DNA from: an uncultured virus (IMG/VR IMGVR_UViG_3300003629_000002)
Taxonomy: Duplodnaviria; Heunggongvirae; Uroviricota; Caudoviricetes
DNA length: 64,000 nucleotides
Virus record (IMG/VR): IMGVR_UViG_3300003629_000002
Reading direction: 5' to 3' (one strand)
In this document: positions 3,722 through 39,235 of the stretch, one piece after another
Numbering within the stretch: position 1 is the stretch's first letter
How the letters are laid out: every line of letters starts with the position of its first letter
Made by a program: the position numbers and the translations under genes
Notes under the pieces: generated by a model
What the model saw: only the letters and a program-made list of their open reading frames with translations
What the model was told of the DNA's origin: nothing
Database searches by the model: none

Positions 3722-4456
3722 ATGAACGTATGTATGATAGAGTGCCCTACTTGTGGCGAGGAAAAGAAGCATATAGGTAAACATTGGAGATTCTGCACAT
3801 ACCCATCGCTATCTCTTGGAAAAAGAGAATTGATAGAAGGTATGGTTCTTGGAGATGGGTCTGTTCACAATACTCGAACCAATAACTTCTTTACTGCTAA
3901 TATGACAAATAAGAAGTTTTTAGAATGGTTAGATGATAGTCTTGGATTATTTTCAAATGGGGTGAAACTTAAGGCAACTGGTGAAGAACTTGCTGAAAAG
4001 AATAAATCTAATGGACTAATTGATGTTGTAAATCCAGATGAATATAGAGATTCTTATATTCTGCAATCAAAAAGACACCCATACTTCAATGGGCTGAGAA
4101 ATATATATTATAATAATAAAGGAAAACATTTCCCAAATAATTTGAAACTTACGAAGAATATGGCAAAAATGTGGTATGTTTCTGATGGTTCTTTGATGTG
4201 GGGAGATAAATCTGGAAATGCAGGATTAAGAATAGGTGTTCGGTCACAAATGGATAGAGAGGAATACCTAATATCTTTATTTAATAGCATTGGATTCGAT
4301 ATTAAACTTAATGGATGGAATTTACAGATGGGGAATAAAGAAGCAGAAAGATTTCTTGATTTTCTTGGAGAACCTGTACCGGGGTTCGAGTATAAGTGGG
4401 AAAATAAAAATAATATTGAATACGAAAGACTTAAGATAGAGGCGTACCAATACTGA
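3722..4456 (+). mobile_element. Free-standing LAGLIDADG-like homing endonuclease
   Basis: LIEGMVLGDGSV and MWYVSDGS motifs, N-terminal CPTCG..HW..C; AT-rich and basic; paralogue of 11028-11735. Confidence 0.8.
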
Positions 4457-5004: not shown

Positions 5005-5808
5005 ATGGTACGCTCGCCGTACAGTTATCCGAGTATGACCTTCCAGATGTATATAAAGAGCGAGTCTTCGGCGCAACTGAAGACAACGATTTCTGGAATC
5101 CAAGTGGGCGCAACCCATCGGTATTCCTGAATCGTCCGTTTTGCGAGTGGGACGAGTATAAGGTACTGATTGCGAGAGCGTGGAGCGAGTCTGACTACAG
5201 AACCGCTTGCGTCCTCGCGCAACTTGCAGTAATTGATGAACAATGGAAAGAGTTAAATACTAATGGACCGAAGTAAGCATATGCCCGTGACCAATTTCGA
5301 TTCGGAGGATGGACAATATTTCGTTGAAGCAATTCGTGATAATATTCATTACACCTTTGTCTTCGTTGACCGAGGCGGTACAGGTGCAATGCTAAAGTCG
5401 ATGATGGTCGATGGTTTTAAGATTGCCCCGACTGAAGGACGAACCAAGGCCGAAGCCTATGGTGAGGCGAGGCGGCAATTGCTCGAAGAAGTCGAACACA
5501 TCGAGGAAGTCTATGTCCCAAGCAACGCGACTGTGATATTCGACAATGAATAGTTTCTTACAATATGACCCGTCGCGGCGCTTAGAGTATCTTTCCGAAT
5601 TTAAGAGAGCAGACAGGTCGTTCAAGAAGATGATGGGCTGGTCCGGTCCTCGAATAAAATCGTACAATGAGGTGGAGATACAAGATTATTACCAGCGCGT
5701 CTTGGCAGAAGCATACGATAATTCGAATATCGAGTTCACGGATGCACTTATCGGGTATATGCTCGTTCTCGGTGGATGCGAGTACGATAAGACTAAAATG
5801 TATTAAAT

Positions 5809-5824
5809 CGAAAGATTTAAATAG
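5809..5824 (+). promoter_or_regulatory. Example of the recurrent viral promoter (BRE + TATA), CGAAAnnTTTAARTA
   Basis: cgaaagatttaaatag; near-identical motif recurs about 25 nt upstream of many ATGs and RNA genes. Confidence 0.85.
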
Positions 5825-5858
5825 TAGTAGTTCTTACTATAGTGTGTACGTGGACGAT

Positions 5859-6016
5859 GGCCGACCGCTACTTCAAGGCAAACCCCAACTCTTTAACAGT
5901 TGTTATTGAAGGTTCGATTCCTTCCGTGGGTGGCTCCCTCGTAGGTTAATTTAACAGCCAATTATGGCAGTTCTCGGACTGCCCTATCAAAAGCGGCATT
6001 CGGTGGCCTTATTTTT
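5859..6016 (+). ncRNA. Circularly permuted tRNA-like RNA (YrlA/Y RNA-like)
   Basis: Order: anticodon-like arm CAACT/AGTTG, T arm GAAGG-TTCGATT-CCTTC, loop-closed acceptor stem, D arm; paired termini; own promoter and T-run. Confidence 0.75.
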
Positions 6017-6109
6017 CCGCGAACGTGCTTGCCCTCGCTCCACTCCTTTCTCCCTTTTCGTTTTTCACAATTCGATAGGGTTAAGTATGTGGACGCTTTA
6101 CATAGAAAT

Positions 6110-6394
6110 ATGGCACGTAATACAAATTGTTTGTTCTGCCCTGAACCGGATAGAATCACACGCTGGTTCCACGAGGACTCGGTATGCCTACTTATTAATA
6201 AACCGACAGGTGAACCGATGCTCGTCCTCAAGCGACATACGACGGAGCCAACCGAGAAGGAGATGACGCATATGCGAGAAGTCGCATCTGACTATTGTGG
6301 AGCGCACGATATTCAGGTAATTCTTGACCACGTTCCAAATCATTGGCACGGGCATCTTATCAACTACGAGACACATCCATCGGAGGCTAACTGA
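6110..6394 (+). CDS. HIT-like family protein
   Basis: N-terminal CLFC, MLVLKRH, C-terminal HWHGH. Confidence 0.6.
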   Translation: MARNTNCLFCPEPDRITRWFHEDSVCLLINKPTGEPMLVLKRHTTEPTEKEMTHMREVASDYCGAHDIQVILDHVPNHWHGHLINYETHPSEAN

Positions 6395-6617: not shown

Positions 6618-7091
6618 ATGAAATTGTATACAGATGCATCGGCTGACGAGAACGCAAACGTATTCGGAATTGGATACATTCTCGAATTGAAGACCGGCGC
6701 ACGAATACAGGGGAAGCACTATGTCGAAGGCGAGTATACCTCGATGGAAGCAGAGTGGTATGCCATTATGCAAGGACTGGAACTTGCAAGTGAGAACATT
6801 ACGTCTCACGATTCGTCAATAGAGGTTATCACGGATTGTAAGCCGCTCGTTAACAAGATTAGAGAGCCTGACGATATGTACGACGACCGATGGTTCAATT
6901 ATCGGCGTCAGATGTTGGGCGAGTTATTCACGTTCGAGGCGTGGGACCTCTACTGGGAGGAACGAAGCACAACCGAGCAAAACGAAAAAGCAAATCGTCT
7001 TGCACGAGAGGCGATGTGGGAAGGTCGTGGTGACGATGGCGTTGTCGGGGGCAATGCCTCAGAAGGTGTCACCTTCAATACAATAGAATGA
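6618..7091 (+). CDS. rnhA: Ribonuclease HI family protein
   Basis: LYTDAS, TSMEAEWYA, ITDCK, NEKANRLA motifs. Confidence 0.85.
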   Translation: MKLYTDASADENANVFGIGYILELKTGARIQGKHYVEGEYTSMEAEWYAIMQGLELASENITSHDSSIEVITDCKPLVNKIREPDDMYDDRWFNYRRQMLGELFTFEAWDLYWEERSTTEQNEKANRLAREAMWEGRGDDGVVGGNASEGVTFNTIE

Positions 7092-7193: not shown

Positions 7194-7844
7194 ATGGAGA
7201 AAGTAGAGCGTATCAATCGCGTGAAAAATACATTGGATATGGAGGAACTATATCGGAAACTTCCTGAAGTTGGTACTATTCTTGACCCGGAATTGCAAGA
7301 TATTACAGAGCAGACATTTCTTACTGGCTGTCCTGACCATTTCTGGATTCGCCCGAGTTCCTCGACTGGGAAGTATCATTCTGAAGATGAGACAGGCAAG
7401 TTCGGCAATTGGCTTCACACGAAGCGTGTATTTGTAACATATATGATTCTTAGCCGCTCTTATTTAGAGCAGGGACTCATTTCGGAATTTGACAGAGAGG
7501 CTGGTAAGAGCGCCGCCTTGCTTCACGATATGCTCAAGTATGGCTGGCCGTCAGAGGGTCGTGAGCATACCTCAAATCGTCACGATGTTATCGGGAGCGA
7601 CGTAGCCCGCGTCCTCGGCAAAGCACCAGAGGAAGTCCATCAGGCGATTCACGCACACAACGGAGCGTGGGCCGAGGGGAAGAACCCCGAGACTAACTAC
7701 GAGCAGATTCTTCACTTATCGGATTACGTCGCGTCGAAACCAATTTTGGGAAGTCCGGCTGTCTGGAATCCTGCTGAAGAACTCGAAGAAGCCTTTCCTG
7801 ACCTTCGCACCATCGACGATGACACACTTGAAGGACTGCTCTAA
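7194..7844 (+). CDS. HD-domain phosphohydrolase
   Basis: PSSSTGKYH, HT, AALLHDMLK, H, AHNG, SD motifs. Confidence 0.85.
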   Translation: MEKVERINRVKNTLDMEELYRKLPEVGTILDPELQDITEQTFLTGCPDHFWIRPSSSTGKYHSEDETGKFGNWLHTKRVFVTYMILSRSYLEQGLISEFDREAGKSAALLHDMLKYGWPSEGREHTSNRHDVIGSDVARVLGKAPEEVHQAIHAHNGAWAEGKNPETNYEQILHLSDYVASKPILGSPAVWNPAEELEEAFPDLRTIDDDTLEGLL

Positions 7845-7883: not shown

Positions 7884-7988
7884 ATGAGATTTACTTGTAA
7901 CGTTGGCGAATGTCCGTACAGCACAACTCTCGCAGAAAATATCGGCCTACATCTTGCAGAGGAGCATCCTGAAGAAGTTGAACTATGA
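7884..7988 (+). CDS. 34-aa C2H2 zinc-finger microprotein
   Basis: MRFTCNVGECPY...HLAEEH; follows a TATA box and overlaps the next start. Confidence 0.6.
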   Translation: MRFTCNVGECPYSTTLAENIGLHLAEEHPEEVEL

Positions 7989-8350
7989 ATGTTGCAATTG
8001 TCGGCTCTCGCTCGCTTGAGGGGCGGAGAAGCGATGTTCGAGATGCTATTTTTCGAAGCCCGTGGCTCGCTGAAGGAGAACCATCCGGCGTTGACACAAT
8101 TATCAGCGGCGGTGCTGATGGTGTCGATACGTATGCCGAGCAGGTCGCTGATGAGTTGGCCCTCGATACTCGAATCATCGAGCCAGACTGGGAGTCCTAC
8201 GGGCCTGCGGCTGGACCAAAACGGAATACGAAGATTATCGAAGAAGCAGACGCCGTAATCGTCATATGGGATGGCGCTTCTAACGGCACGGCTGACTCGT
8301 TGCGAAAGGCGATTGATATGGGCAAGACAATTTACGCCGAGCAACTCTAA
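7985..8350 (+). CDS. SLOG family protein (DUF2493/YspA-like)
   Basis: VAIVGSR, ISGGADGVD, AAGPKRN, WDGASNGT. Confidence 0.85.
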   Translation: MNVAIVGSRSLEGRRSDVRDAIFRSPWLAEGEPSGVDTIISGGADGVDTYAEQVADELALDTRIIEPDWESYGPAAGPKRNTKIIEEADAVIVIWDGASNGTADSLRKAIDMGKTIYAEQL

Positions 8351-8388: not shown

Positions 8389-9777
8389 ATGAAACTCTAC
8401 GGCGAATACAACGAGGCGACGATTCATACGGAGGCTGAACAGGTTGACGCTTCAGCGATGGAGCAGATTTCCGAAATGGTCAATCATCCCGCGTTCGAGG
8501 GAGACTCGGACGTGTCGATTATGCCTGACTTTCATTGGGGCGCAGGTGCAGTAATCGGATTTACGATGCCCGTAAAAGAGCGTGTCGTTCCGAATACCAT
8601 CGGCGTTGACATTGGTTGCGGAATGTTCGCAGTCAATCTTGGCGATATTGAGTTTGACTCACTTGAGTCGCTCGACTCAGCGGTGCGCTCGCGGATTCCG
8701 ACAGGCTTTGATGTCCACTCGCGGAATGACTATCATATGATTAACGATTTCCCGTGGCAAGCCTGCGAGGATAAGTGGCACTCGTTTGCTGAGAGTACCT
8801 CGTTTGCGCTGGAAAATGAAACGCAGTACCCTCGTGAGACGTACTTCGAGAATCTGTGCAAGCGTGTCGGCTACGATATGGGACGCGCAATTAACAGTAT
8901 CGGCACGCTTGGCGGCGGGAATCACTTCATCGAGTTTGGCCGTGATTCGGAGAATCACGTTTGGTGCATCATCCACTCCGGCTCTCGCGGAATCGGTGCA
9001 GAGATTGCTTCCTATTGGCAGGACCGTGCGACTGAAGCGATGAACGAGCGTGCGATGGAGGGAGATATTCCTGACTCTATCGAGCCGTATCTCTCGGATA
9101 ACTGGAAACCGAAGGCTGACAAGATTCGCGCCAACTTTGAGGGAGAGGACATTCAGGAAAAGTTCAATGAATTGTCACAATTCATTCAGTCCACGAAACA
9201 GGATGAACAGAACCGGAACACGGACCTTGACTATCTCGAAGGAGACGAGGCGCACGGATATATTCGGGATATGATATTCGCACAGACCTATGCCAGCGTC
9301 TCTCGAAAGCAGATGGCTATTGCTGTGCTGGATGCTGTGCGTTCCCTGCAAGACGAGCCTGTCCCCGAAGACGAGGCTCCCGCGTGGTGGAAGGACTCCA
9401 TCGAGTCCGTTCATAATTACATCGACTTCGAGGATGCGACCATTCGCAAAGGAGCCTGTCGCGCACACGCCGATGAGCGGCTCGTTGTTCCGCTTAATAT
9501 GAAGTACGGCACTCTGCTTTGTAAAGGCAAAGGACGCGCTGACTGGAACAATTCAAGCGCACACGGCGCTGGTCGTGCAATGAGCCGGACTGCGGCTCAC
9601 GACAAGTTCACCGACGACGACTTCGAGGAACAGACTGAAGGAGTCTATATGTCGAAGAAACCGATGGACGAAATTCCGGGTGCATATAAGGATGCGTCCT
9701 CCATCGAGTCAGCCTTGGGTGAATCTGTCGAGGTAATCGACCGTGTGATTCCGTTCCTCTCAATCAAGGCGGAGTAA
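8389..9777 (+). CDS. rtcB: RNA-splicing/repair ligase RtcB
   Basis: MPDFHWG, GVDIGCG, GTLGGGNHF, HSGSRG, HN, RKGA, SSAHGAGRAMSR, DEIPGAYK. Confidence 0.97.
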   Translation: MKLYGEYNEATIHTEAEQVDASAMEQISEMVNHPAFEGDSDVSIMPDFHWGAGAVIGFTMPVKERVVPNTIGVDIGCGMFAVNLGDIEFDSLESLDSAVRSRIPTGFDVHSRNDYHMINDFPWQACEDKWHSFAESTSFALENETQYPRETYFENLCKRVGYDMGRAINSIGTLGGGNHFIEFGRDSENHVWCIIHSGSRGIGAEIASYWQDRATEAMNERAMEGDIPDSIEPYLSDNWKPKADKIRANFEGEDIQEKFNELSQFIQSTKQDEQNRNTDLDYLEGDEAHGYIRDMIFAQTYASVSRKQMAIAVLDAVRSLQDEPVPEDEAPAWWKDSIESVHNYIDFEDATIRKGACRAHADERLVVPLNMKYGTLLCKGKGRADWNNSSAHGAGRAMSRTAAHDKFTDDDFEEQTEGVYMSKKPMDEIPGAYKDASSIESALGESVEVIDRVIPFLSIKAE

Positions 9778-10447: not shown

Positions 10448-10579
10448 AGGCCCGTGGCCGAATGGTTTAAGGCGCTATATTCCGTCTTTCAAAATTTGGT
10501 TCGCGGAAGCGAAACGATTGAAAGGCTTACTTCACACCTGATGAGTGAGAGATTGCTGGTTCGAATCCAGTCGGGCCTA
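10448..10579 (+). ncRNA. tRNA-like RNA with a 58-nt structured insert at the D/anticodon junction (unpermuted YrlA-like, or tRNA-Ile(GAT) with a non-canonical intron)
   Basis: Acceptor AGGCCCG/CGGGCCT, D arm, T arm GCTGG-TTCGAAT-CCAGT, loop CTGATGA; insert GTCTTTCAA/TTGAAAGGC followed by TTACTTCA. Confidence 0.7.
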
Positions 10580-11027: not shown

Positions 11028-11735
11028 ATGTATAATTCTTGCGATTCGTATAATACCTGTAAGTCCTGTGGTAAGGATTTTAAGAAGATTTCTTTACATT
11101 GGGCAAGTTCTGATTGTAGGTATCCTAAATTGGATAAAGATACAGAGAGTGTTATTAAGGGGTTGCTTGCAGGTGATGCAACTATAGGCAAGGATGGAAG
11201 ATTATCTGTATATACAACTAATCCAATTTTTGCAGAATTTATATACAGACAGTTAATATCTATAGTTCCAGTAACAGTAAGTATTAGAGATGCAGATAGT
11301 AATGAATTAATGAAAAGAGAACTTTTTGAATTAACATTGCCTAAACATAAGTTTACTAAGAAATTAAGGGATGATTGGTATAATCCAAAGAAAATACCTA
11401 AGAATACGGTTGTGGATAAATTATTTACTAAGTATTGGTATGTTTGTGATGGAAATTTAAATAGTAAATATGAGGCATCTATCACAACATCTTCCAAAAA
11501 TATTGAATTTGTAGAAAAATCATTTAATCAATTGCCATTTGAGTATAAAATTAAAAATATCGGCACAACTGAGTTAAGTAATAATGATAGATACAGAATA
11601 TATATTAGTAGTCGGGAAAATGTTGAGAAATTTCTGAATTACCTCGGGGAACCTGTACCCGGATTTGAATACAAGTGGGAAATAGACGGTAATAAGAGAA
11701 AATCTATGAAGCAAGATGTGTACCAAAAGATTTAA
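11028..11735 (+). mobile_element. Free-standing LAGLIDADG-like homing endonuclease
   Basis: VIKGLLAGDAT and YWYVCDGN motifs; LGEPVPGFEYKWE shared with 3722-4456; AT-rich. Confidence 0.8.
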
Positions 11736-14936: not shown

Positions 14937-15614
14937 ATGGGACTACTTAATAAATTCATTCGAGTGGTGAAGGCGAAGGCGAACAACTTACTCAATAACG
15001 CGGAAGACCCTATCGAGCAACTGGAACTCGCATATGACGAGTTGGAGGACAAGCGCGACAATGTTCGTTCCTCGATTGTGGACGTTATCGCGCAACGAAA
15101 GCGCCTTGAGAGCAGGGTGTCGAAGTTGCAAGATGAAGTGCAGGAGCATAATCGACAGTCTCGCGCTCTTGTCAACGAGGACGAGGACGACCTTGCACGA
15201 GTAGAGTTAGAGAAGAAGAAATCGAAGATGAAGGCAATCGAGAAACTTCAGGGTCAGATTACGCAACTTGACGACCTTGAGCAAGATATGCGCGACCAAC
15301 ACGACGAAATCGAGAGCCGCCTCGATGAACTTGAGACTGAGAAGGAAGTCCTCAAGGCTCGGTACGAGGGCGCTGAAGCGATTGAGGCAGTCAACGAGAG
15401 CCTCTCTGAAGGCATTGGTGACTTCTCAATTGAGGATGCGGTGTCGGATGTTCGGGAAGACGTAGAACAAATGGAGGCTCGTGCAGAGGCTATTCAGGAA
15501 TTTGACGATAGCCAGCAGTCTCACGAGGACCGTGTTGAGGAGATTGCGACTGATGCCGAGGTTGAATCGGAGTTGGAGAGCCTGCGAGGTGAGGCGGAGG
15601 CTGAGGTCGCGTGA
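14937..15614 (+). CDS. pspA: PspA/IM30 family protein
   Basis: MGLLNKFIRVVKAKANNLLNNAEDP, coiled coil, EDDLAR, EVESELESLR. Confidence 0.9.
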   Translation: MGLLNKFIRVVKAKANNLLNNAEDPIEQLELAYDELEDKRDNVRSSIVDVIAQRKRLESRVSKLQDEVQEHNRQSRALVNEDEDDLARVELEKKKSKMKAIEKLQGQITQLDDLEQDMRDQHDEIESRLDELETEKEVLKARYEGAEAIEAVNESLSEGIGDFSIEDAVSDVREDVEQMEARAEAIQEFDDSQQSHEDRVEEIATDAEVESELESLRGEAEAEVA

Positions 15615-15801
15615 GCAAGTGCCACGTCTGCGGTGAGACGTTCACGCGGAAGATAAATCTCGGGAGTGCTGGCACGTTTAACGTAAGCGATAGTGATACT
15701 GTCTGCTATTCGGGAATGTACGATAGGCTTTACTTCCACCAAAACCGAAAGGTTTAAGTAACCCGAGTCCCAATAGTAGTATGCCGTTAACGACGGTACG
15801 A

Positions 15802-15865
15802 GGGAGTCGGATTCATCATTGACAAATGGGTTTTGATGCTCACCTAAAGTAGCATCCCGACTCCC
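15802..15865 (+). ncRNA. Structured RNA in the leader of the Ro60 gene
   Basis: 9-bp GGGAGTCGG/CCGACTCCC stem enclosing two hairpins. Confidence 0.5.
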
Positions 15866-15888
15866 AATTTCAACCGTGGTGATACAAA

Positions 15889-16710
15889 ATGGGAATTAAC
15901 TTCAACGACACGAAAGAGACAGTCGCAGAACGAACCGAGAAGGACAACTATGAGGGAGGAACGGCCTATGAGCCTGACTCGCCCGAGGTTGCGCTGACGA
16001 AGAACGTCCTGACGAATCTGCTTGAAGACTCGTTCTACGAGTCGGCAGAGGACTCGATGGATGCCGTCAAGCGTGAGTTCGAACGAGTTGCAGACTCTAA
16101 TCCAGAGTTTGTCCTGAAGTTGGCTACGTATGCGCGACAGTCTGAGAATCTTCGGCAAGTCCCTCAACTGTTGCTCGTACTCGCGGCCAACGACGCTCGG
16201 ACGAAGGGATACGTTCGTAGTTACGCTGAGTCGATTATTCAGCGTGCAGATGAACCCCTCGAAGTTCTTGCGATGCAGGTTTCCCTGTACGGCAAGTCCA
16301 TCCCGAATCCGCTTGAGAAAGGTATCGAGGATGCACTTCATAATTTCAACGAGTATCAATTCGCAAAGTGGGACCGTCCTTCGAGAGAATGGCAGTACCG
16401 CGACTTGCTGAACTTAGTCCACCCGCGTCCTCGGGATGATGAGAGAGATGCAATCTTTGAGCAAATTGCTCTCGGAGAACTGGACTCTCATCCCGATGTA
16501 GATTCGCTCAAGCAGTCCGATACGTGGGAGGATGAAATGTCTGATGCCGGTAAAGAGGACCGGGATAAGGCAGAGGTTTGGCGCGAACAACTCCGCGAAA
16601 ATGATGAAGGCTACTCGATGCCTATCTTTGCACGGGTTCGTAACGTTCGAAATATGCTTGATGAAGGACTCTCCGGTGAGGAAATCTTCAATTACGATAT
16701 TGAAGAATGA
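15889..16710 (+). CDS. Ro60/TROVE-domain protein, N-terminal part
   Basis: NYEGGTAY, DSFYES, KLATYAR, IQRADEP, FNEYQFAKW, DLLNLVHPRP, TWE, ARVRNVRN. Confidence 0.9.
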   Translation: MGINFNDTKETVAERTEKDNYEGGTAYEPDSPEVALTKNVLTNLLEDSFYESAEDSMDAVKREFERVADSNPEFVLKLATYARQSENLRQVPQLLLVLAANDARTKGYVRSYAESIIQRADEPLEVLAMQVSLYGKSIPNPLEKGIEDALHNFNEYQFAKWDRPSREWQYRDLLNLVHPRPRDDERDAIFEQIALGELDSHPDVDSLKQSDTWEDEMSDAGKEDRDKAEVWREQLRENDEGYSMPIFARVRNVRNMLDEGLSGEEIFNYDIEE

Positions 16711-17411
16711 GCAATTATATTTCAGATAAAGAATTAATTGATGATATAAGGTTAGTTTCATCTGAAATGGGAGAAGTTCCTTCAAGACGCCAGTATAATG
16801 AGCGCGGAAATTATTCTTATAACACGCATTGTCGGAGGTTCGGCTCTTGGAATAGTGCGCTTGAAAAGTCCGTTGGCTCCATAAATAAATATCAGAATAT
16901 TTCTGAAGAAGAATTATATAGCGAAATAGATAGATTATACGAAGAATTAGGCCGACCGCCAATGCAAGAAGATATGAAAAGAATTGGCGAATATAGTCCT
17001 GATACATACCACTATAACTTAGATGGGTGGAGTCAAGCAGTTATAGATGCAGGATATGAACCTATTACAAGAGGTTTTAAAAGTGGAAAGGAGCATCCTG
17101 ATTGGAAAGGTGGCTCTATTGACTATTATGGGCCTAATTGGAGTTCGGTTAGAAAAGAGATTCTTGAAAGGGATAGCAATTGTTGCAGGATATGCTCAGA
17201 ATCAGAGGAGCGACTTTGCGTCCATCATATTAATCCGCGCTCAGAATTTGTTAAAGATGGTGAATACAATTACGAAAAAGCAAACAAGAAGGAAAATCTT
17301 ATAACGCTGTGTGATTCTTGCCATATGAAGTTTGAGGGAAAATTCGCTAACAGTAGCCATACGGAGTTCGAGAATGAAGCGAAAGATTTAAGTAGTACCA
17401 AAACGAAATAA
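16707..17411 (+). mobile_element. HNH homing endonuclease with two N-terminal HNH-associated repeats, inserted in the Ro60 gene
   Basis: RRFGSWNSAL repeat, WKGG, LERD..CRIC, VHHI, NLITLCDSCH; AT-rich. Confidence 0.9.
17380..17395 (+). promoter_or_regulatory. Viral promoter embedded in the HNH 3' end, upstream of the Ro60 C-terminal half
   Basis: cgaaagatttaagtag at leaderless spacing from ATG 17417. Confidence 0.7.
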
Positions 17412-17416
17412 GTAAT

Positions 17417-18157
17417 ATGAAAGATAACAATATTTTCGGAGATACGTCCGAACGAGTTGTACGAAATAGTGGCCTATATCCTTTTAGATATTATCAGGCT
17501 TATAAGGCTATTAAAGAATCACCTGATACACCAAATGATAAGAGGGTATTAGAATGGCTCGAAAACGCAATGCGCGTTGCAACAGAGAATCTGCCGGACG
17601 TATTCGAGAATACGTTTACAGCAGTTGACGTGTCTGGTTCGATGCGTCACGCTGTCTCCGGTGATTCGGAACTCACTTGCAAGGAGATTGCCACGCTGTT
17701 CGGTGCGATGATGCTTGAGCGCGACTCGGATGTAGGCGTGTTTGCAAGCAACTTCGCTGAGGTAAACGCTGACCCGCGCAATCCACTTGTCACCAATGCG
17801 GAGAAGTTACAAGGTTCGCGTGTCGGCGGCTCGACGAATGGCTGGAAGGTGCTTCGTGGGCTGAGAAAAGAGAACCGCTCTTACGACAGGGTGGTAGTCT
17901 TCACGGATATGCAACTCTGGAACGACTCTCCGTACCAGAACTCCTCGTTCAAGGACGAGTGGGATGCCTACAAGCAACAGAATCCTGATGCAAGCCTATA
18001 TCTGATTGACCTTCAGCATTATGGCGACCTCGTTACGCCAGAGGGGGCGCAGGATGTATATAATATCTCCGGCTGGTCTGAGAAGGTTCTCGACTTCATC
18101 GAGGCCATTGAGAATGTCGATGGGATGATTCAAGAGATTGAATCGGTAGAGCCGTAA
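17417..18157 (+). CDS. Ro60/TROVE protein C-terminal part with vWA domain
   Basis: SGLYPFRYYQAY, AVDVSGSM (MIDAS), GGSTNG, VVVFTDMQ, ISGWSEKV. Confidence 0.9.
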   Translation: MKDNNIFGDTSERVVRNSGLYPFRYYQAYKAIKESPDTPNDKRVLEWLENAMRVATENLPDVFENTFTAVDVSGSMRHAVSGDSELTCKEIATLFGAMMLERDSDVGVFASNFAEVNADPRNPLVTNAEKLQGSRVGGSTNGWKVLRGLRKENRSYDRVVVFTDMQLWNDSPYQNSSFKDEWDAYKQQNPDASLYLIDLQHYGDLVTPEGAQDVYNISGWSEKVLDFIEAIENVDGMIQEIESVEP

Positions 18158-19000: not shown

Positions 19001-19885
19001 ATGCGAGACAAAATTAGAAATACAATTTACGAGATTGAGACGAGCGAGAATATCCACGCAATCTCTTGTCGCTCGTTTGGGAGTCATATGATGAACCTCG
19101 ACTCGGACGAGTCAGACTACGATGCGTTTCTCGTCTTCGCGCAAAGTGCGCCGGATTATGCAACTATCGGCGGCTACGAGGATACGCTGACCATTAAGCG
19201 AGGCGAGATTGACTTCCAATGCTGGAACGTCAAAAAGTTTGGCGAACTACTGAATGACTCAAATCCCACGACTCTTGAGTTTCTGAACTCGCCAGTTACG
19301 TACTTCGAGAATCCCGAATTTATCAGCACGCTGGATTCGTTGCGGGAAATGGCGAACGAGAACTTCAAGCCGATTGCGCTCTACTACCATTACCGTAGTA
19401 TGGCGGAGTCGAACTATATGAAGTACCTCAAACCGTGCATCTACGATACGGAGGGAGAGCGATACCCTATCGAGAACGAGGATGACCACTACTGGCATAC
19501 CGGCATTGGTGAGATTCCGAAAGACTCGGATGAGTACGAGGCTGGCAACTTGAAGCAGACTGTCAAGCGTAATCTCTACATTATGCGAGCCATCCTTCAC
19601 GCGAAGCACATCCGCAAGACGCACGAGATGCCGACGATGAACTTCCCTGCATTCGTTGATTCACTCGATGAAGGTGACTTGGGGCTTACGCGAGCAGACA
19701 AGGATAGGCTGAAAAAGTGTATCCATCGAAAGCGTAACGCGAATGCGTATGAGGAAATCGGGAATCCGTTCGAGGATTTCATCGAGGCCGAGTTATCGCG
19801 TGAACTTGACCCGGAAAAACATCTCGACGGAGAGATGAATACTGAGCAGATTAACGAGTTCATCAAGAATGGTATTGTTCGCTGA
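19001..19885 (+). CDS. Pol-beta superfamily nucleotidyltransferase (RlaP/YcgL-like)
   Basis: GSHMMNL...SDYD, WNVKKF..LL..SNP..LEFL.SP, YHYRSMA. Confidence 0.85.
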   Translation: MRDKIRNTIYEIETSENIHAISCRSFGSHMMNLDSDESDYDAFLVFAQSAPDYATIGGYEDTLTIKRGEIDFQCWNVKKFGELLNDSNPTTLEFLNSPVTYFENPEFISTLDSLREMANENFKPIALYYHYRSMAESNYMKYLKPCIYDTEGERYPIENEDDHYWHTGIGEIPKDSDEYEAGNLKQTVKRNLYIMRAILHAKHIRKTHEMPTMNFPAFVDSLDEGDLGLTRADKDRLKKCIHRKRNANAYEEIGNPFEDFIEAELSRELDPEKHLDGEMNTEQINEFIKNGIVR

Positions 19886-27051: not shown

Positions 27052-30000
27052 TCATAGTTCAGACTCCACGTAGTTCTCAGCGTCTTCGAGGAACTGCTCG
27101 ATGTCTTCCTCGGTCCATTCCGCATCGTCGTCCATCTCGATAAGAATCTCACGAGCCGCCTCCTGCTTCTTATCAAGATTATTGTCAACACGAGTCGTCA
27201 GCACTTGCTCATCACGAGAGCCGTCGCGGTAGAACGTCAGACCCTTAATCGTTTGGCCGAGTTCGTCTTCGTCAAGCGCGAGCATAAAGGCTTCGTGAAC
27301 GTCGTTCCGGGTTGCGTCATTCGGCGCATTGATTGTCTTACTGATACCGGAATCAACGAACTCCTGAAACGCTCTTTGCATCATCCCGTGTTCGCGTGAC
27401 GAGAGGTCGTTCGTTGTTACGAAGACCTTTGCAATATTTTCGGGAATATCGAGGTCGTCAACTCCGTCGAACTCGTTGTTTCGCATCTTTGTTTCAGCAT
27501 CTTCCTTGATGCTCTCCACATCGAGTCCGTTCGCCTCAAGCGTCTTGAGGAAGTAGTCGTCAAATTCGACGAGCATATCGCTTCCCTGAATGTCGTCTCC
27601 GACGTTCTTGAAGTTTGCGACGTTGTACGCAGGTTCACAACCGCCGGTCGTGTTACCAATCATTGAAGTTGTCCCGGTCGGAGCGATTGTCGTCGTATTG
27701 TGATTGCGAATCGGGAAGCCATCTTCCCAATCGTCAGCACTTTCGTAAGTATGCCCCTCGAACCACTCACGGTACTTCTGCGGGTCGGCGTACTTCGACT
27801 CGTCCCAGTAGTCGAACGAGCCGCGCTCTTGAGCGAGTTCGTGACTCATCTGGACAGACTCCTTATCAATGAAGCCCATCACGACACGGGCCGCCTGATA
27901 CGAGTTATCGCTTCCATACGGGATTCCCATCTGGTAGAGCATCTGCGCCCATCCCATAATCCCGAGGCCAATCTTTCGCTGACCCTTCACGCGCTCTGAG
28001 ATTTGTTCAAGCGGGAACTCGCTTTGGGTTACAACGTTATCGAGGAACCGAGTGCCGTGTCGGGTAATCATCTGCAACTGCTCCCAATCAACGTTCTCCT
28101 CGCAGTAGTCCGTTACTGCGTTCTTCTCGAACTGATAATCGTAATCGACAGTTTTCTTCCATTCCTCGAACGGAATAGAATCCGACTTCATCATCAGGCT
28201 CAGATTAACGTGCCCGAGGTTGCACGCCTCGAACGCGGAGAGCGGCTGTTCGGCGCATCCACGATTGACATAGCCTTCAGTAACCCACGTATCTGAACCA
28301 GAACAGTAGAGGTCAAAGACAGTTTCTTTTTCCTCAAGAACCTCAATAGATTCGACAGTTGCTTTCCACAGACCGCCGGTTAGCATAAAGTCAGTTCGTA
28401 GCGTTTCAAGACGTTCGCCTTTACTTGTGTGGTAATTTGACAGTCGAGTGTTTCGAACAAATGTGTCAGCAGACTCGCCAGCGATGTGAATATTGTAGAG
28501 AGTGTACGTCTCATCATTACCAATTTCACTTCCATCACCCCGAGTTCCGCCACGATTCTTTCTCTTGTCTTCGTAAATCCGAGCGTGCATACCCACATTG
28601 AGGGCAAGATTTCGGATGTTGTTAGCCAACTTTTCCGAAGACGTAGACCAGCGAATCTGAGGCCGGTTAGAAGACATACTAACACTACCATCAGTAGCCA
28701 ACATACCGTCAAGGAACCCTTGGACTCCCGCCCGAGTCTTAAATTCAGTCACATCCACACTTTTTTCGTAACTGTATTCGGGGTTGAGATTGTGGTCTTC
28801 AATGACTTTCTCTGCGTCTGCAATCCAAAGCTTGACCGACTTGTTTCGACCGCTGGTATCAAGCTCTCCGACATTGTAACCAGCATCCTCAAACAGTTCT
28901 CGGACGTTCTGATTGAATGTGGTATCATCTTCACTCGAACTAATTGAAAGTCGATTGTTCACATCAATTGTCTTCTGTGTGTATCCCCCATCTCCGGTGA
29001 GGATACCACGTCGGAGTTGATACTTGTAATCTTCTTCAGTCCCTTTACTCTCAAGCGTTGATGGTTCAAGTCGAATCTTATCACCCTCAGAAATATCTCG
29101 GAGAGGAGTGTTTTTATCCACACTCTTTTTCCCGTCAAGAACGTGGAAGCGATGGTCTTCTGTCGCCTTAACACTACCACCATCACTTAGATTGACTTGA
29201 TAGACCTCTTTATCCTCAAAGGTTAGAATCTCATCAACAGATTCGGTTCCATAAACAGTTGAAATTTTATTTCCTTCGCTAACGTTTTCGGCACGAATTA
29301 GTCCGTTAGGAGTGTTAACGAGCGTGTCGCCCGTGACGCACGGATTGGTCGCATTGATTGCATGTTGCGGGTACTCGTCTGCGTCGAAGGAATGCTTGCG
29401 GTTCGTCTCGTCGTAGTGGAACAGACCCGGCTCACCATTGCGCCACGCTCCGTCGATAATGAGGTCCCAAATGAAGCGAGCGGGAAGCGTCATTTCTTCG
29501 CCAACCTCAAGACTGAAGCGAGACTGGTCCCACTTTTCTGCGAGCGGAATCTTCTCGTCGGTGTCGTAATCAGGGTGTGCGACGATGGTATCAGCGTAGT
29601 CTCGCCACAGGTTCTCGTCTACAAGTTCCATCCCAACCTTATCCTCAGCATTCGCCTGCTGGAAGTCTTTCGGGTTGTCAGCGTACTCGGGAGAGTAGAA
29701 CTTCTTCGTTTCTTCGAGAACTGCCTGCGGCTCCGAGAAGTCGGACTGCGGGTCGTAGATTGCGTAGTCTTCGTCGTTGCGAACAGCCTCGATAAATTCA
29801 TCCGTGAGAGCGACAGAGATATTGAAGTTATCGAGGACACCCTCGACACGTTTTGCTGTAATGAATCGACCAATGTCGGCGTGGTCAATTCGCATAATAC
29901 CCATCTGTGCCCCTCGTCGCTTTCCTCCCTGCTTCACCGTTTCGCACGTCTCGTCGTAGAGACGCATAAACTGCATTGGACCGCTGGTTTCAGATTCGGT

Positions 30001-30483
30001 TGACCGAATGTACGCTCCCTTTGGCCGAAGATGACTGAAACTGTAGCCAACTCCGCCGCCACTCTTGAAAATCTGACCAGCGTGCTTCACCGTATCGAGA
30101 ATGGACTCTCGACCAAACTCGTCTTCCTCTGCCATCGAATCGCCCGGCTCAAGGACGAAGCAGGCCGAGAGTTGCTGAAGGCTCGCTCCTGCGTTCATTA
30201 GAGTCGGGCTGTTCGGCATAAACTGAAGCGTACTCATCATATGCTCGAACTCGTCGGCCCACATCTCCTGAGCCACTTCATCGCTTTCCGCACCAGCGAC
30301 GTTCTCTGCGACTCGATTGAATAGGTCTTCCGGGTCCTCACCTTCGAGGAGATACCGTGCTGGAAGAATATTGTGATATGCGTTTCCAGTCATTCGTTCC
30401 TTGACCGATTCAGTCTCGTCTACCGAGAGAATCGGCATCTCTACTTCTACTTCTTTCTCTGATGCTTGTGTTTGTTGAGTCAT
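27052..30483 (-). CDS. nrdJ: Adenosylcobalamin-dependent (class II) ribonucleotide reductase with intein
   Basis: PNSPTLMNAG, LSACFV, GGGVG, QGGKRRGA, NP/CAEQ, CNLG, TIAPTGT, ISKTIN, KGLTFYRDGSR. Confidence 0.95.
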   Translation of the reverse strand: MTQQTQASEKEVEVEMPILSVDETESVKERMTGNAYHNILPARYLLEGEDPEDLFNRVAENVAGAESDEVAQEMWADEFEHMMSTLQFMPNSPTLMNAGASLQQLSACFVLEPGDSMAEEDEFGRESILDTVKHAGQIFKSGGGVGYSFSHLRPKGAYIRSTESETSGPMQFMRLYDETCETVKQGGKRRGAQMGIMRIDHADIGRFITAKRVEGVLDNFNISVALTDEFIEAVRNDEDYAIYDPQSDFSEPQAVLEETKKFYSPEYADNPKDFQQANAEDKVGMELVDENLWRDYADTIVAHPDYDTDEKIPLAEKWDQSRFSLEVGEEMTLPARFIWDLIIDGAWRNGEPGLFHYDETNRKHSFDADEYPQHAINATNPCVTGDTLVNTPNGLIRAENVSEGNKISTVYGTESVDEILTFEDKEVYQVNLSDGGSVKATEDHRFHVLDGKKSVDKNTPLRDISEGDKIRLEPSTLESKGTEEDYKYQLRRGILTGDGGYTQKTIDVNNRLSISSSEDDTTFNQNVRELFEDAGYNVGELDTSGRNKSVKLWIADAEKVIEDHNLNPEYSYEKSVDVTEFKTRAGVQGFLDGMLATDGSVSMSSNRPQIRWSTSSEKLANNIRNLALNVGMHARIYEDKRKNRGGTRGDGSEIGNDETYTLYNIHIAGESADTFVRNTRLSNYHTSKGERLETLRTDFMLTGGLWKATVESIEVLEEKETVFDLYCSGSDTWVTEGYVNRGCAEQPLSAFEACNLGHVNLSLMMKSDSIPFEEWKKTVDYDYQFEKNAVTDYCEENVDWEQLQMITRHGTRFLDNVVTQSEFPLEQISERVKGQRKIGLGIMGWAQMLYQMGIPYGSDNSYQAARVVMGFIDKESVQMSHELAQERGSFDYWDESKYADPQKYREWFEGHTYESADDWEDGFPIRNHNTTTIAPTGTTSMIGNTTGGCEPAYNVANFKNVGDDIQGSDMLVEFDDYFLKTLEANGLDVESIKEDAETKMRNNEFDGVDDLDIPENIAKVFVTTNDLSSREHGMMQRAFQEFVDSGISKTINAPNDATRNDVHEAFMLALDEDELGQTIKGLTFYRDGSRDEQVLTTRVDNNLDKKQEAAREILIEMDDDAEWTEEDIEQFLEDAENYVESEL
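28258..29340 (-). mobile_element. 361-aa intein with LAGLIDADG endonuclease and atypical C-terminus (…YVNRG/C)
   Basis: Starts CVTGDT after ATNP; block B ATEDHRF; GILTGDG and FLDGMLATDG; VFDL; extein resumes CAEQPL. Confidence 0.9.
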
Positions 30484-30587
30484 TGTTATGTCACCGTCAA
30501 ATGCGAGAGCCATCCCTATGTGAATTACGATTCTCGCATCCAACTTCGGGATATTAGTGTATGCGTTCCGGGTACTTAAGCCTTTCG

Positions 30588-39101: not shown

Positions 39102-39235
39102 GCGTCCGTGGCCCAATCAGGTACGGCACTCCGCTGATAAAAGAGATAATCAGATGAATATCCCAATATTAATTCGGCATCTGAGTATCACTTGCAGTAA
39201 CGGAGCGATTGTTGGTTCAAATCCAACCGGGCGCA
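39102..39235 (+). tRNA. tRNA-Ile(GAT) with a 60-nt intron (39140-39199) at position 37/38
   Basis: CTCCG-CTGATA|...|A-CGGAG; BHB with one A.G mismatch. Confidence 0.88.

Follow-up and report, generated by a model that had tools for sequence, protein, structure and literature searches.

A tRNA-like RNA gene, candidate divergent YrlA-type Y RNA, in the RNA-repair island of an archaeal virus

The stretch of DNA analysed here, which we call the window, comprises 64,000 nucleotides of an uncultured virus of the Caudoviricetes (IMG/VR record IMGVR_UViG_3300003629_000002). Comparison with Halogranum tailed virus 1 (HGTV-1, NC_021328) points to a real, conserved and separately promoted structured RNA gene on its plus strand at about 5846-6065. 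We read the product as a divergent YrlA-type Y RNA belonging to a viral RNA-repair island with Ro60, RtcB and RlaP, and we give this reading a probability of roughly 0.6. It draws on a promoter of the gene's own, on conserved and covarying helices, on an architecture that matches that of YrlA RNAs and on the presence of Ro60, RtcB and RlaP genes in the virus. The RNA is notable mainly for the domain of its host and for its unusually tRNA-like body.

The minimum free energy fold of positions 5859-6016 alone was ordinary (z = -1.11; 28 of 200 shuffled sequences folded equally well), and therefore the support for the RNA rests on comparison and not on thermodynamics. A 4-kb stretch around the locus aligned with HGTV-1 over 95% of its length at 67.2% nucleotide identity. 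The gene order was identical, the RNA locus was syntenic, and the homologous gap of HGTV-1 (L001:7125-7449) could be aligned throughout. From a global alignment of the window with HGTV-1, we obtained identities of 0.76 for the whole RNA (5846-6066), 0.90 for the core that runs from the T arm through the hairpin to the D arm, 0.88 for the segment holding the 5' box (5853-5876) and 1.00 for a 3' block (6023-6045). The corresponding values were 0.47 for the anticodon-like arm and 0.59-0.67 for four neighbouring open reading frames (ORFs) and RNase H.

Six base pairs were kept through changes on both sides: four in the anticodon-like arm, one in the terminal stem and one in the hairpin at 5966-5983. 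Thus 4 of the 5 pairs of the anticodon-like arm had changed on both sides, while its loop retained 6 of 7 bases (CUGUAAC in HGTV-1). In the terminal stem all 8 pairs were retained, with pair 5862-6005 showing a compensatory change from C-G to U-A, and in the T arm all 5 pairs were retained in both viruses. The D-like stem has three pairs in common, and its fourth is kept in each virus by a register shift of one nucleotide (an indel plus an A-to-G change). The hairpin at 5966-5983 has three unchanged pairs and one compensatory pair; its two outer pairs are lost in HGTV-1. The HGTV-1 annotation places solely one hypothetical 63-aa gene in this gap, on the opposite strand (gene 148, L001:7216-7407, minus). 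The two gaps differ by indels of 1, 1, 1, 2, 2 and 7 nt, and the corresponding ORF of the window shares just an 8-residue match with gene 148, therefore a protein-coding reading of the locus fails and was rejected. Gene 148 is probably a spurious ORF call that overlaps the RNA gene.

A preliminary description of this locus, made from the sequence alone, had credited the RNA with its own promoter, and a perfect copy of a recurring viral motif indeed lies upstream of it (Table 1). Allowing up to 3 mismatches, we counted 40 copies of this 16-nt motif, CGAAAGATTTAARTAG, in the window, where 1.41 would be expected; 100 shuffles gave 6 at most. Its copies (for example at 5809, 17380, 35149 and 38582) stand upstream of leaderless genes and of tRNA genes. 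For the 33 copies on the plus strand, the ATG of a leaderless gene mostly follows 21-22 nt past the motif end; for mature tRNA 5' ends the distance is 21-32 nt, except for two tRNA arrays that begin at 59 and 78 nt. The leaders of the tRNA genes begin with ACG(C/A)..A(A)G. From the ATG spacing, the RNA is therefore predicted to start near 5846-5848, about 11-13 nt upstream of the first base given in the preliminary description. An Rfam match to CRISPR-DR6 at 5782-5814 (22.7 bits, threshold 39) shares bases with the end of the upstream ORF and with part of the promoter motif, and was dismissed.

The T-run claimed in the same description stands in part. The T5 at 6012-6016 is present in the window but absent in HGTV-1; the T5 shared by both viruses lies about 50 nt further on, and is just preceded by the invariant block 6023-6045, which is single-copy in the window. 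The RNA, as predicted from the motif and the shared T5, is thus probably wider than first flagged. The block may be the 3' strand of a lower stem or a protein-binding site. RNAalifold pairs the leader (5850-5861) with 6031-6043, GGA-CGA-N-GGC with GCC-C-UCG-C-UCC, and the duplex reaches -16.8 kcal/mol in the window, a value matched or bettered by 22 of 500 shuffles. In HGTV-1 the variable trailer just past the terminal stem is an equally good partner for the leader, and the block duplex is not the best one. The modelled pairing of leader and block is a possible candidate for the lower, Ro60-binding stem. An inverted repeat of the window (5982-5991 with 6071-6080) was, by eye, not conserved in HGTV-1.

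On inspection of the sequence, the elements listed in the preliminary description, from the anticodon-like arm to the 3' strand that pairs with the 5' end, were all found in place (Table 1). To these we add the leader of about 11-13 nt, an insert with the D-loop-like AAGGCA (5875-5880), the hairpin at 5966-5983 and the invariant block. Nine T-arm-like matches occur outside tRNA genes in the window, and the tRNA-type GG..CC closing pairs are found solely in the T arm of this RNA. The T arm of the viral tRNA-Ser(GCT) equals it save one loop base; comparison of the RNA with the window's viral tRNAs revealed no likeness outside the T arm.

YrlA RNAs bind Ro60/Rsr and are substrates of the tRNA-modifying enzymes TruB and DusA. 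The order of elements agrees with that of YrlA RNAs, as the preliminary description had proposed: a T arm, a closed acceptor-like hairpin, UA and a D arm, enclosed by a stem of the 5' and 3' ends. We encoded this order in a descriptor (T arm, hairpin with at most 1 mismatch, TA, 4-bp stem with a loop of 6-11 nt) and ran it over 880 kb. It matched the locus, the HGTV-1 homologue, one YrlA of CcrColossus next to a TROVE gene, and the elements at L029:9858-9908 and L039:3309-3360, the last of which recurs in L041 and L046; false matches comprised one at a tRNA of the window and several tRNA-tRNA junctions. L029:9806-9958 (an IMG/VR contig) and L039:3258-3404 (a metagenome contig) are canonical YrlA-type RNAs. 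Both lie directly upstream of genes with a TROVE domain (E = 4e-12 and 3e-16), and covariation is seen in their two outer stems, where 6 pairs are altered on both strands. The L029 RNA, the one of the two that was scanned, was missed at the Rfam gathering threshold.

The RNAs of L029 and L039 run from a terminal stem and a second stem to UUACUUC, a 5-bp stem with a 7-nt loop, a 5-nt linker, the T arm, the closed hairpin, UA, the D arm and the closing strands of the stems, and the same element order was found in the window and HGTV-1 RNAs. In a MAFFT alignment of the four, the octamer G-N-UACUUC was invariant (4/4); L029 and L039 have their D arms out of register by one column in it. The octamer includes the YUAY that begins the V region of YrlAs (Chen 2014, PMC4201824), as CUAC in the window and UUAC in HGTV-1. 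Chen 2014 also describes a V stem-loop in many YrlAs, and in L029 and L039 the 5-bp stems with loops CUGUUAA and CUUGUAA, respectively, resemble anticodon arms; the 'CU...AA' loop pattern recurs in the viral RNA. Thus the anticodon-like arm corresponds to the V stem-loop of YrlAs. The feature lists in Chen 2014 and in Wang 2018 (bioRxiv 10.1101/312249) further include the UA, the T-loop consensus, the closed acceptor-like hairpin and a last linker base that can pair with A15, here a pyrimidine; all of them are present. The 5' motif GNCGAAN0-1G, as given by Chen 2014, is exact in HGTV-1 and has one mismatch in the window.

Several differences from known YrlAs accompany these likenesses. The viral RNA carries an insert of 14 nt after the UAC box, and a further hairpin follows its D arm. 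Its length is probably about 220 nt, in contrast to the 128-172 nt of the phage YrlAs in Table S2 of Chen 2014, and it belongs to a giant virus of halophilic archaea, with an archaeal-type promoter. Yrn1 of Deinococcus radiodurans, likened here by its description in Chen 2014 alone, is also associated with Ro60 and has a T-like stem-loop and a modelled 5-bp 'anticodon arm', but its D arm is incomplete and its loop is 6 nt long.

The virus encodes the presumed protein partners of such an RNA. A viral Ro60, as assumed in the preliminary description, does exist: its gene is present in the window and in HGTV-1, that is, in 2 of 2 genomes carrying the RNA. It belongs to an island of about 14 kb on the same strand as the RNA, which contains RtcB, an HD protein, RNase H, an intron-containing tRNA, Ro60 and RlaP. 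The combination of Ro60, a tRNA-like RNA, RtcB and RlaP is an RNA-repair association described for phages and cells (PMC7824862). The Ro60 gene of the window is in three pieces. Compared with the intact 510-aa protein of HGTV-1, the two Ro60 halves show 88% and 81% identity; they abut at its residue 267 and match residues 21-261 and 283-484 of solved TROVE proteins. The stop of the first half and the start of the HNH gene overlap. A separate, perfect copy of the promoter motif (17380-17395) stands 22 nt ahead of the ATG of the second half, therefore Ro60 is probably made as two polypeptides.

A second structured RNA forms the leader of Ro60. This leader of about 105 nt, of unusual length in a genome of mostly leaderless genes, aligned throughout with HGTV-1 (L001:15316-15428). 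Its consensus fold is a rod in which the 5' end pairs with bases just before the AUG. An inner hairpin has 4 pairs changed on both sides (GAUGCU/AGCAUC versus GUCACC/GGUGGC) around a conserved CCUAAA loop. The leader had no match in Rfam and no significant similarity to the RNA at 5846-6066. Possible identities for it are a second, simpler Y RNA, an autoregulatory leader and the main partner of Ro60.

Table 1. Positions of the RNA elements and of the neighbouring genes in the window
Feature	Position	Strand	Remarks
Promoter, B recognition element (BRE)/TATA-type viral motif CGAAAGATTTAAATAG	5809-5824	+	0 mismatches; motif conserved in HGTV-1
Leader, including predicted transcription start (about 5846-5848)	5846-5858	+	placed by distance from promoter motif
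Leader motif GACGAUG (GACGAAG in HGTV-1)	5853-5859	+	resembles YrlA 5' motif GNCGAAN0-1G
Terminal stem, 5' strand as first noted, GGCCGACCGC	5859-5868	+	
Terminal stem, 5' strand GGCC-G-ACCG	5859-5867	+	pairs with 6001-6008; 8/8 pairs kept in both viruses
Box GCUACUUC, includes YrlA 'YUAY'	5867-5874	+	G-N-TACTTC invariant in 4/4 aligned RNAs
Insert AAGGCAAACCC with D-loop-like AAGG(Y)A	5875-5885	+	14-column gap in L029 and L039
Anticodon-arm-like hairpin CAACT-CTTTAAC-AGTTG (YrlA 'V' stem-loop, by similarity)	5886-5902	+	5 bp and 7-nt loop CUUUAAC
Linker TTATT	5903-5907	+	5 nt
T arm GAAGG-TTCGATT-CCTTC	5908-5924	+	
Closed acceptor-like hairpin CGTGGG-TGGCT-CCCTCG	5925-5941	+	5/6 pairs in window, 4/6 in HGTV-1; 5-nt loop UGGCU invariant
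UA (TA in DNA) between hairpin and D-like arm	5942-5943	+	
D-like arm GGTT-AATTTAAC-AGCC (as RNA GGUU-AAUUUAAC-AGCC)	5944-5959	+	loop without GG
Extra hairpin GGCAGU-UCUCGG-ACUGCC	5966-5983	+	loop conserved
Terminal stem, 3' strand CGGTGGCC (CGGU-GGCC)	6001-6008	+	pairs with 5' end
TTATTTTT, possible early terminator	6009-6016	+	not conserved in HGTV-1
Invariant 23-nt block ACGTGCTTGCCCTCGCTCCACTC	6023-6045	+	100% identical to HGTV-1 and third variant
T5 common to window and HGTV-1, likely terminator of full-length RNA	6061-6065	+	
RNase H	6618-7091	+	
HD-domain protein	7194-7844	+	
SLOG/DprA-like protein	7985-8350	+	
RtcB RNA ligase	8389-9777	+	PF01139, E = 9.9e-63
Intron-containing tRNA	10448-10579	+	Rfam
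PspA	14937-15614	+	
Second structured RNA, Ro60 leader (about 105 nt)	15779-15888	+	between promoter motif 15746-15761 and Ro60 start codon 15889
Ro60 gene, three pieces	15889-18157	+	TROVE half 15889-16710, HNH homing endonuclease 16707-17411, vWA_Ro60 half 17417-18157
RlaP nucleotidyltransferase	19001-19885	+	PF10127, E = 3.6e-35

We searched for further homologues in several collections. Four DNA-pattern scans of viral contigs returned 3, 18, 5 and 1 loci, with HGTV-1 as the sole true match; on inspection L002, L003 and L023-L026 were ordinary tRNAs or chance matches, and L005-L020 and L022 gave no descriptor match. The scan of metagenome contigs returned 19 loci, by inspection 18 ordinary tRNAs and one chance match (L040). 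With the invariant block as query, genome contigs yielded 6 loci, all bacterial chance matches as judged by record title. When the N-terminal half of Ro60 was searched against phages by tblastn, 95 records matched, and among the 40 listed HGTV-1 (2 records) was the sole archaeal one. In sequencing runs the locus was found in two hypersaline-lake DNA runs, with no RNA run among the matches listed. A 1522-nt contig from hypersaline-lake DNA run X1 represents a third, divergent variant: it matches 5853-5876, 6023-6045 and 6134-6200, and has 149 unaligned letters where the window has 146.

Several observations weigh against the assignment to the YrlA family. The preliminary description had suggested a check with the Rfam YrlA model (RF02553), which the RNA failed: with the threshold at 69 bits, the window scored 17.1 and HGTV-1 15.4. 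The match in the window is local only, covering model positions 26-82. In the whole HGTV-1 record the model gave 8 weak matches, among which the locus ranked 2nd and a junction of the tRNA array was best at 19.9 bits. Sub-threshold matches were also found in 13 of 14 control genomes, and a window-wide Rfam search with E-values up to 10 gave no YrlA match. As a control, the three published YrlAs of CcrColossus scored 42.3, 30.5 and 29.9 bits, all below 69, therefore the threshold also leaves out accepted members from phages.

The RNA lacks the feature most conserved among YrlAs, the D stem-loop GCUC-A..GG.A-GAGC with G18 and G19, and its D loop contains no G. The D arm of HGTV-1 reads GUUG-AAUUAA-CAGC; L029, L039 and the second and third CcrColossus copies have GCUC-A.U.GGUA-GAGC, and the other CcrColossus copy has GUUC-AGUGGUA-GAAC. 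Among the D-type elements of the RNA, GG occurs solely in the upstream insert AAGGYA, and this insert, AAGG(C/U)A, may supply the GG that normally contacts the T loop. The RNA also lies 10.0 kb from Ro60 (8.2 kb in HGTV-1), compared with 159-2062 nt for the phage YrlAs in Table S2 of Chen 2014, and the covarying RNA that immediately precedes Ro60 may compete for the role of partner or share it. Leaders similar to that of the RNA (ACG..AAG) precede the virus's own tRNA genes. Only two sequences stand behind the covariation, the third variant being known from a metagenome run match, and the covariation statistics are thin because of this. When the tRNA-like hairpins were enforced, two models of the closing helix fell within 3.3 kcal/mol of each other; their rank was swapped between the two viruses, therefore the extent of the RNA is given as 'about' and its closing helix as ambiguous. 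In sum, architecture, the shared box and the viral Ro60 speak for the Y RNA proposed in the preliminary description; the Rfam model, the D arm and the missing adjacency to Ro60 speak against it.

The tRNA-like body calls for a comparison with explanations in which Ro60 plays no part. The Rfam tRNA model scored 35.1 bits on the HGTV-1 RNA (threshold 29) over tRNA positions 8-63, with the acceptor not covered. The segment that it aligned consists of UA-CUUC-AAGGUA-CAAC-A followed by the anticodon-like arm, the linker and the T arm, with AA-GGUA taken as the D loop; on the window RNA the match was partial, at 19 bits. Such a nearly complete tRNA body could belong to a tRNA mimic that acts independently of Ro60, either as a decoy or competitor for host tRNA enzymes (anticodon nucleases, modification, CCA-adding or repair enzymes) or as a regulator of the viral tRNA programme, with the leader at 15779-15888 as the real partner of Ro60. 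The anticodon-like loop, which keeps 6 of 7 bases over a stem with 4 of 5 changed pairs, fits this idea, and so does the position of Ro60, 10 kb away and with a covarying rod-like RNA directly upstream. However, the box and the architecture match YrlAs that adjoin Ro60 genes, both genomes that carry the RNA carry Ro60, and a simple decoy needs no long bulged 5'/3' stem. Moreover, two Y RNAs per Ro60 are common in bacteria according to Chen 2014, so the leader RNA is compatible with a YrlA-type RNA as partner. We therefore regard the Ro60-independent mimic as unlikely, while keeping it in view.

The less likely reading named in the preliminary description, a circularly permuted or otherwise unconventional tRNA gene whose transcript is cut and ligated by RtcB into a decoding tRNA (here an ochre suppressor with anticodon UUA), fared poorly. 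The hairpin has equivalents of U33 and A37 and is followed by a variable region of 5 nt and a perfect T arm, the virus encodes RtcB, and the partial tRNA-model matches point the same way. But ARAGORN found no tRNA at the locus, the acceptor-like stem is poorly paired and closed by a 5-nt loop, the D arm is contiguous with the acceptor and lacks G18 and G19, the 5' strand is unable to pair with the strand past the T arm, and the 'anticodon' is UUA in the window but GUA in HGTV-1. When we scanned for bulge-helix-bulge motifs, the two viruses yielded 10 and 6 weak candidates, none shared between them or located at the required junction of D arm and anticodon arm. The permuted tRNA genes of red algae and one archaeon, as described in Wang 2018, are similar in starting out with a closed acceptor and in the pairing of the 5' end with the 3' end; unlike this locus, they are cut at a bulge-helix-bulge and yield genuine tRNAs. 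The tRNA genes of HGTV-1-like haloviruses share the promoter motif, the type of leader and nearly the same T arm with the RNA, but the latter has no cloverleaf. We consider a decoding tRNA extremely improbable. A functionless, decaying remnant of two adjacent tRNA genes would account for the segment order, tRNA positions 8-72 and then a second UA-D arm as in a tRNA dimer, and both the YrlA model, which scores the locus no higher than real tRNA-tRNA junctions, and the descriptor, which matches such junctions, leave room for it. Against this, the locus has a dedicated perfect promoter, compensatory changes in three helices, a core better conserved than the neighbouring protein genes and flanks conserved in the third variant, and the strands of the would-be two acceptor stems pair with each other. 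Decay is accordingly a very unlikely origin.

Under the YrlA-type reading, the gene would yield a structured non-coding RNA of about 170-220 nt, with transcription predicted to begin at a viral promoter that belongs to this gene. The two end regions of the RNA, 5' and 3', would pair as a bulged rod, presumably the Ro60-binding module. The middle would form a permuted tRNA-like module made of the UAC box, the 'V' hairpin, the 5-nt linker, the T arm, the closed acceptor-like hairpin, the UA and the D-like arm. The rod would dock on the ring of the viral Ro60, and the tRNA-like module may recruit a tRNA-recognising enzyme of the island, for instance the RtcB ligase, the RlaP nucleotidyltransferase or an HD phosphohydrolase. 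The resulting particle might check or repair viral or host tRNAs cut during infection. A bolder version is, in our judgment, rather doubtful: the RNA would be the first Y RNA from the archaeal virosphere and would represent an intermediate in evolution, in which a nearly whole first tRNA (U8-A9, D-loop GG, anticodon arm, variable loop and T arm) is joined by way of the closed acceptor hairpin to the 5' portion of another (UA and D arm), matching the 'dimeric tRNA' model for the origin of YrlA. With its anticodon-arm mimic exposed, a Ro60-RtcB-RlaP particle of the virus might then sense tRNAs whose anticodon loop has been cut by defence nucleases of the host, act as their decoy or guide their repair.

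The genome around the island has further features of its own. Of the 34 tRNA genes in the window, 32 were called by ARAGORN at 31.9-44.7 kb, and two with introns (10448-10579 and 39102-39235) were called by Rfam and missed by ARAGORN. The former, close to RtcB, matches in position the HGTV-1 gene annotated as 'tRNA-Asp + intron'. Homing elements abound in the region: the RNA-repair island contains two free-standing genes for LAGLIDADG endonucleases (3722-4456 and 11028-11735), and the large subunit of ribonucleotide reductase (27052-30543, minus strand) carries an intein with a LAGLIDADG domain.

Ro60 and Y RNAs are known from animals, bacteria and bacteriophages. The HGTV-1 annotation notes a Ro60 gene, and a preprint describes Ro60 genes in Asgard 'Nidhogg' viruses. 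Our literature searches on the subject, with passages of Liu 2021 (PMC8651126), the 2026 paper on the HGTV-1 host (PMC13532342) and the Asgard-virus preprint among the texts consulted, yielded no paper that names an RNA partner, and HGTV-1 is absent from the phage table of Chen 2014. If the YrlA-type reading is true, a whole ribonucleoprotein, beyond the protein alone, crossed into archaeal viruses, and a YrlA-type RNA would be placed in an island for tRNA maintenance, in the archaeal virus richest in tRNA genes. The lost D-loop GG, the GG-bearing insert and the anticodon-arm mimic would bear on how mimics evolve from tRNAs. With HGTV-1 and its host in culture (PMC13532342), the RNA would also offer a tractable system for learning what the tRNA-like domain of a Y RNA recruits.

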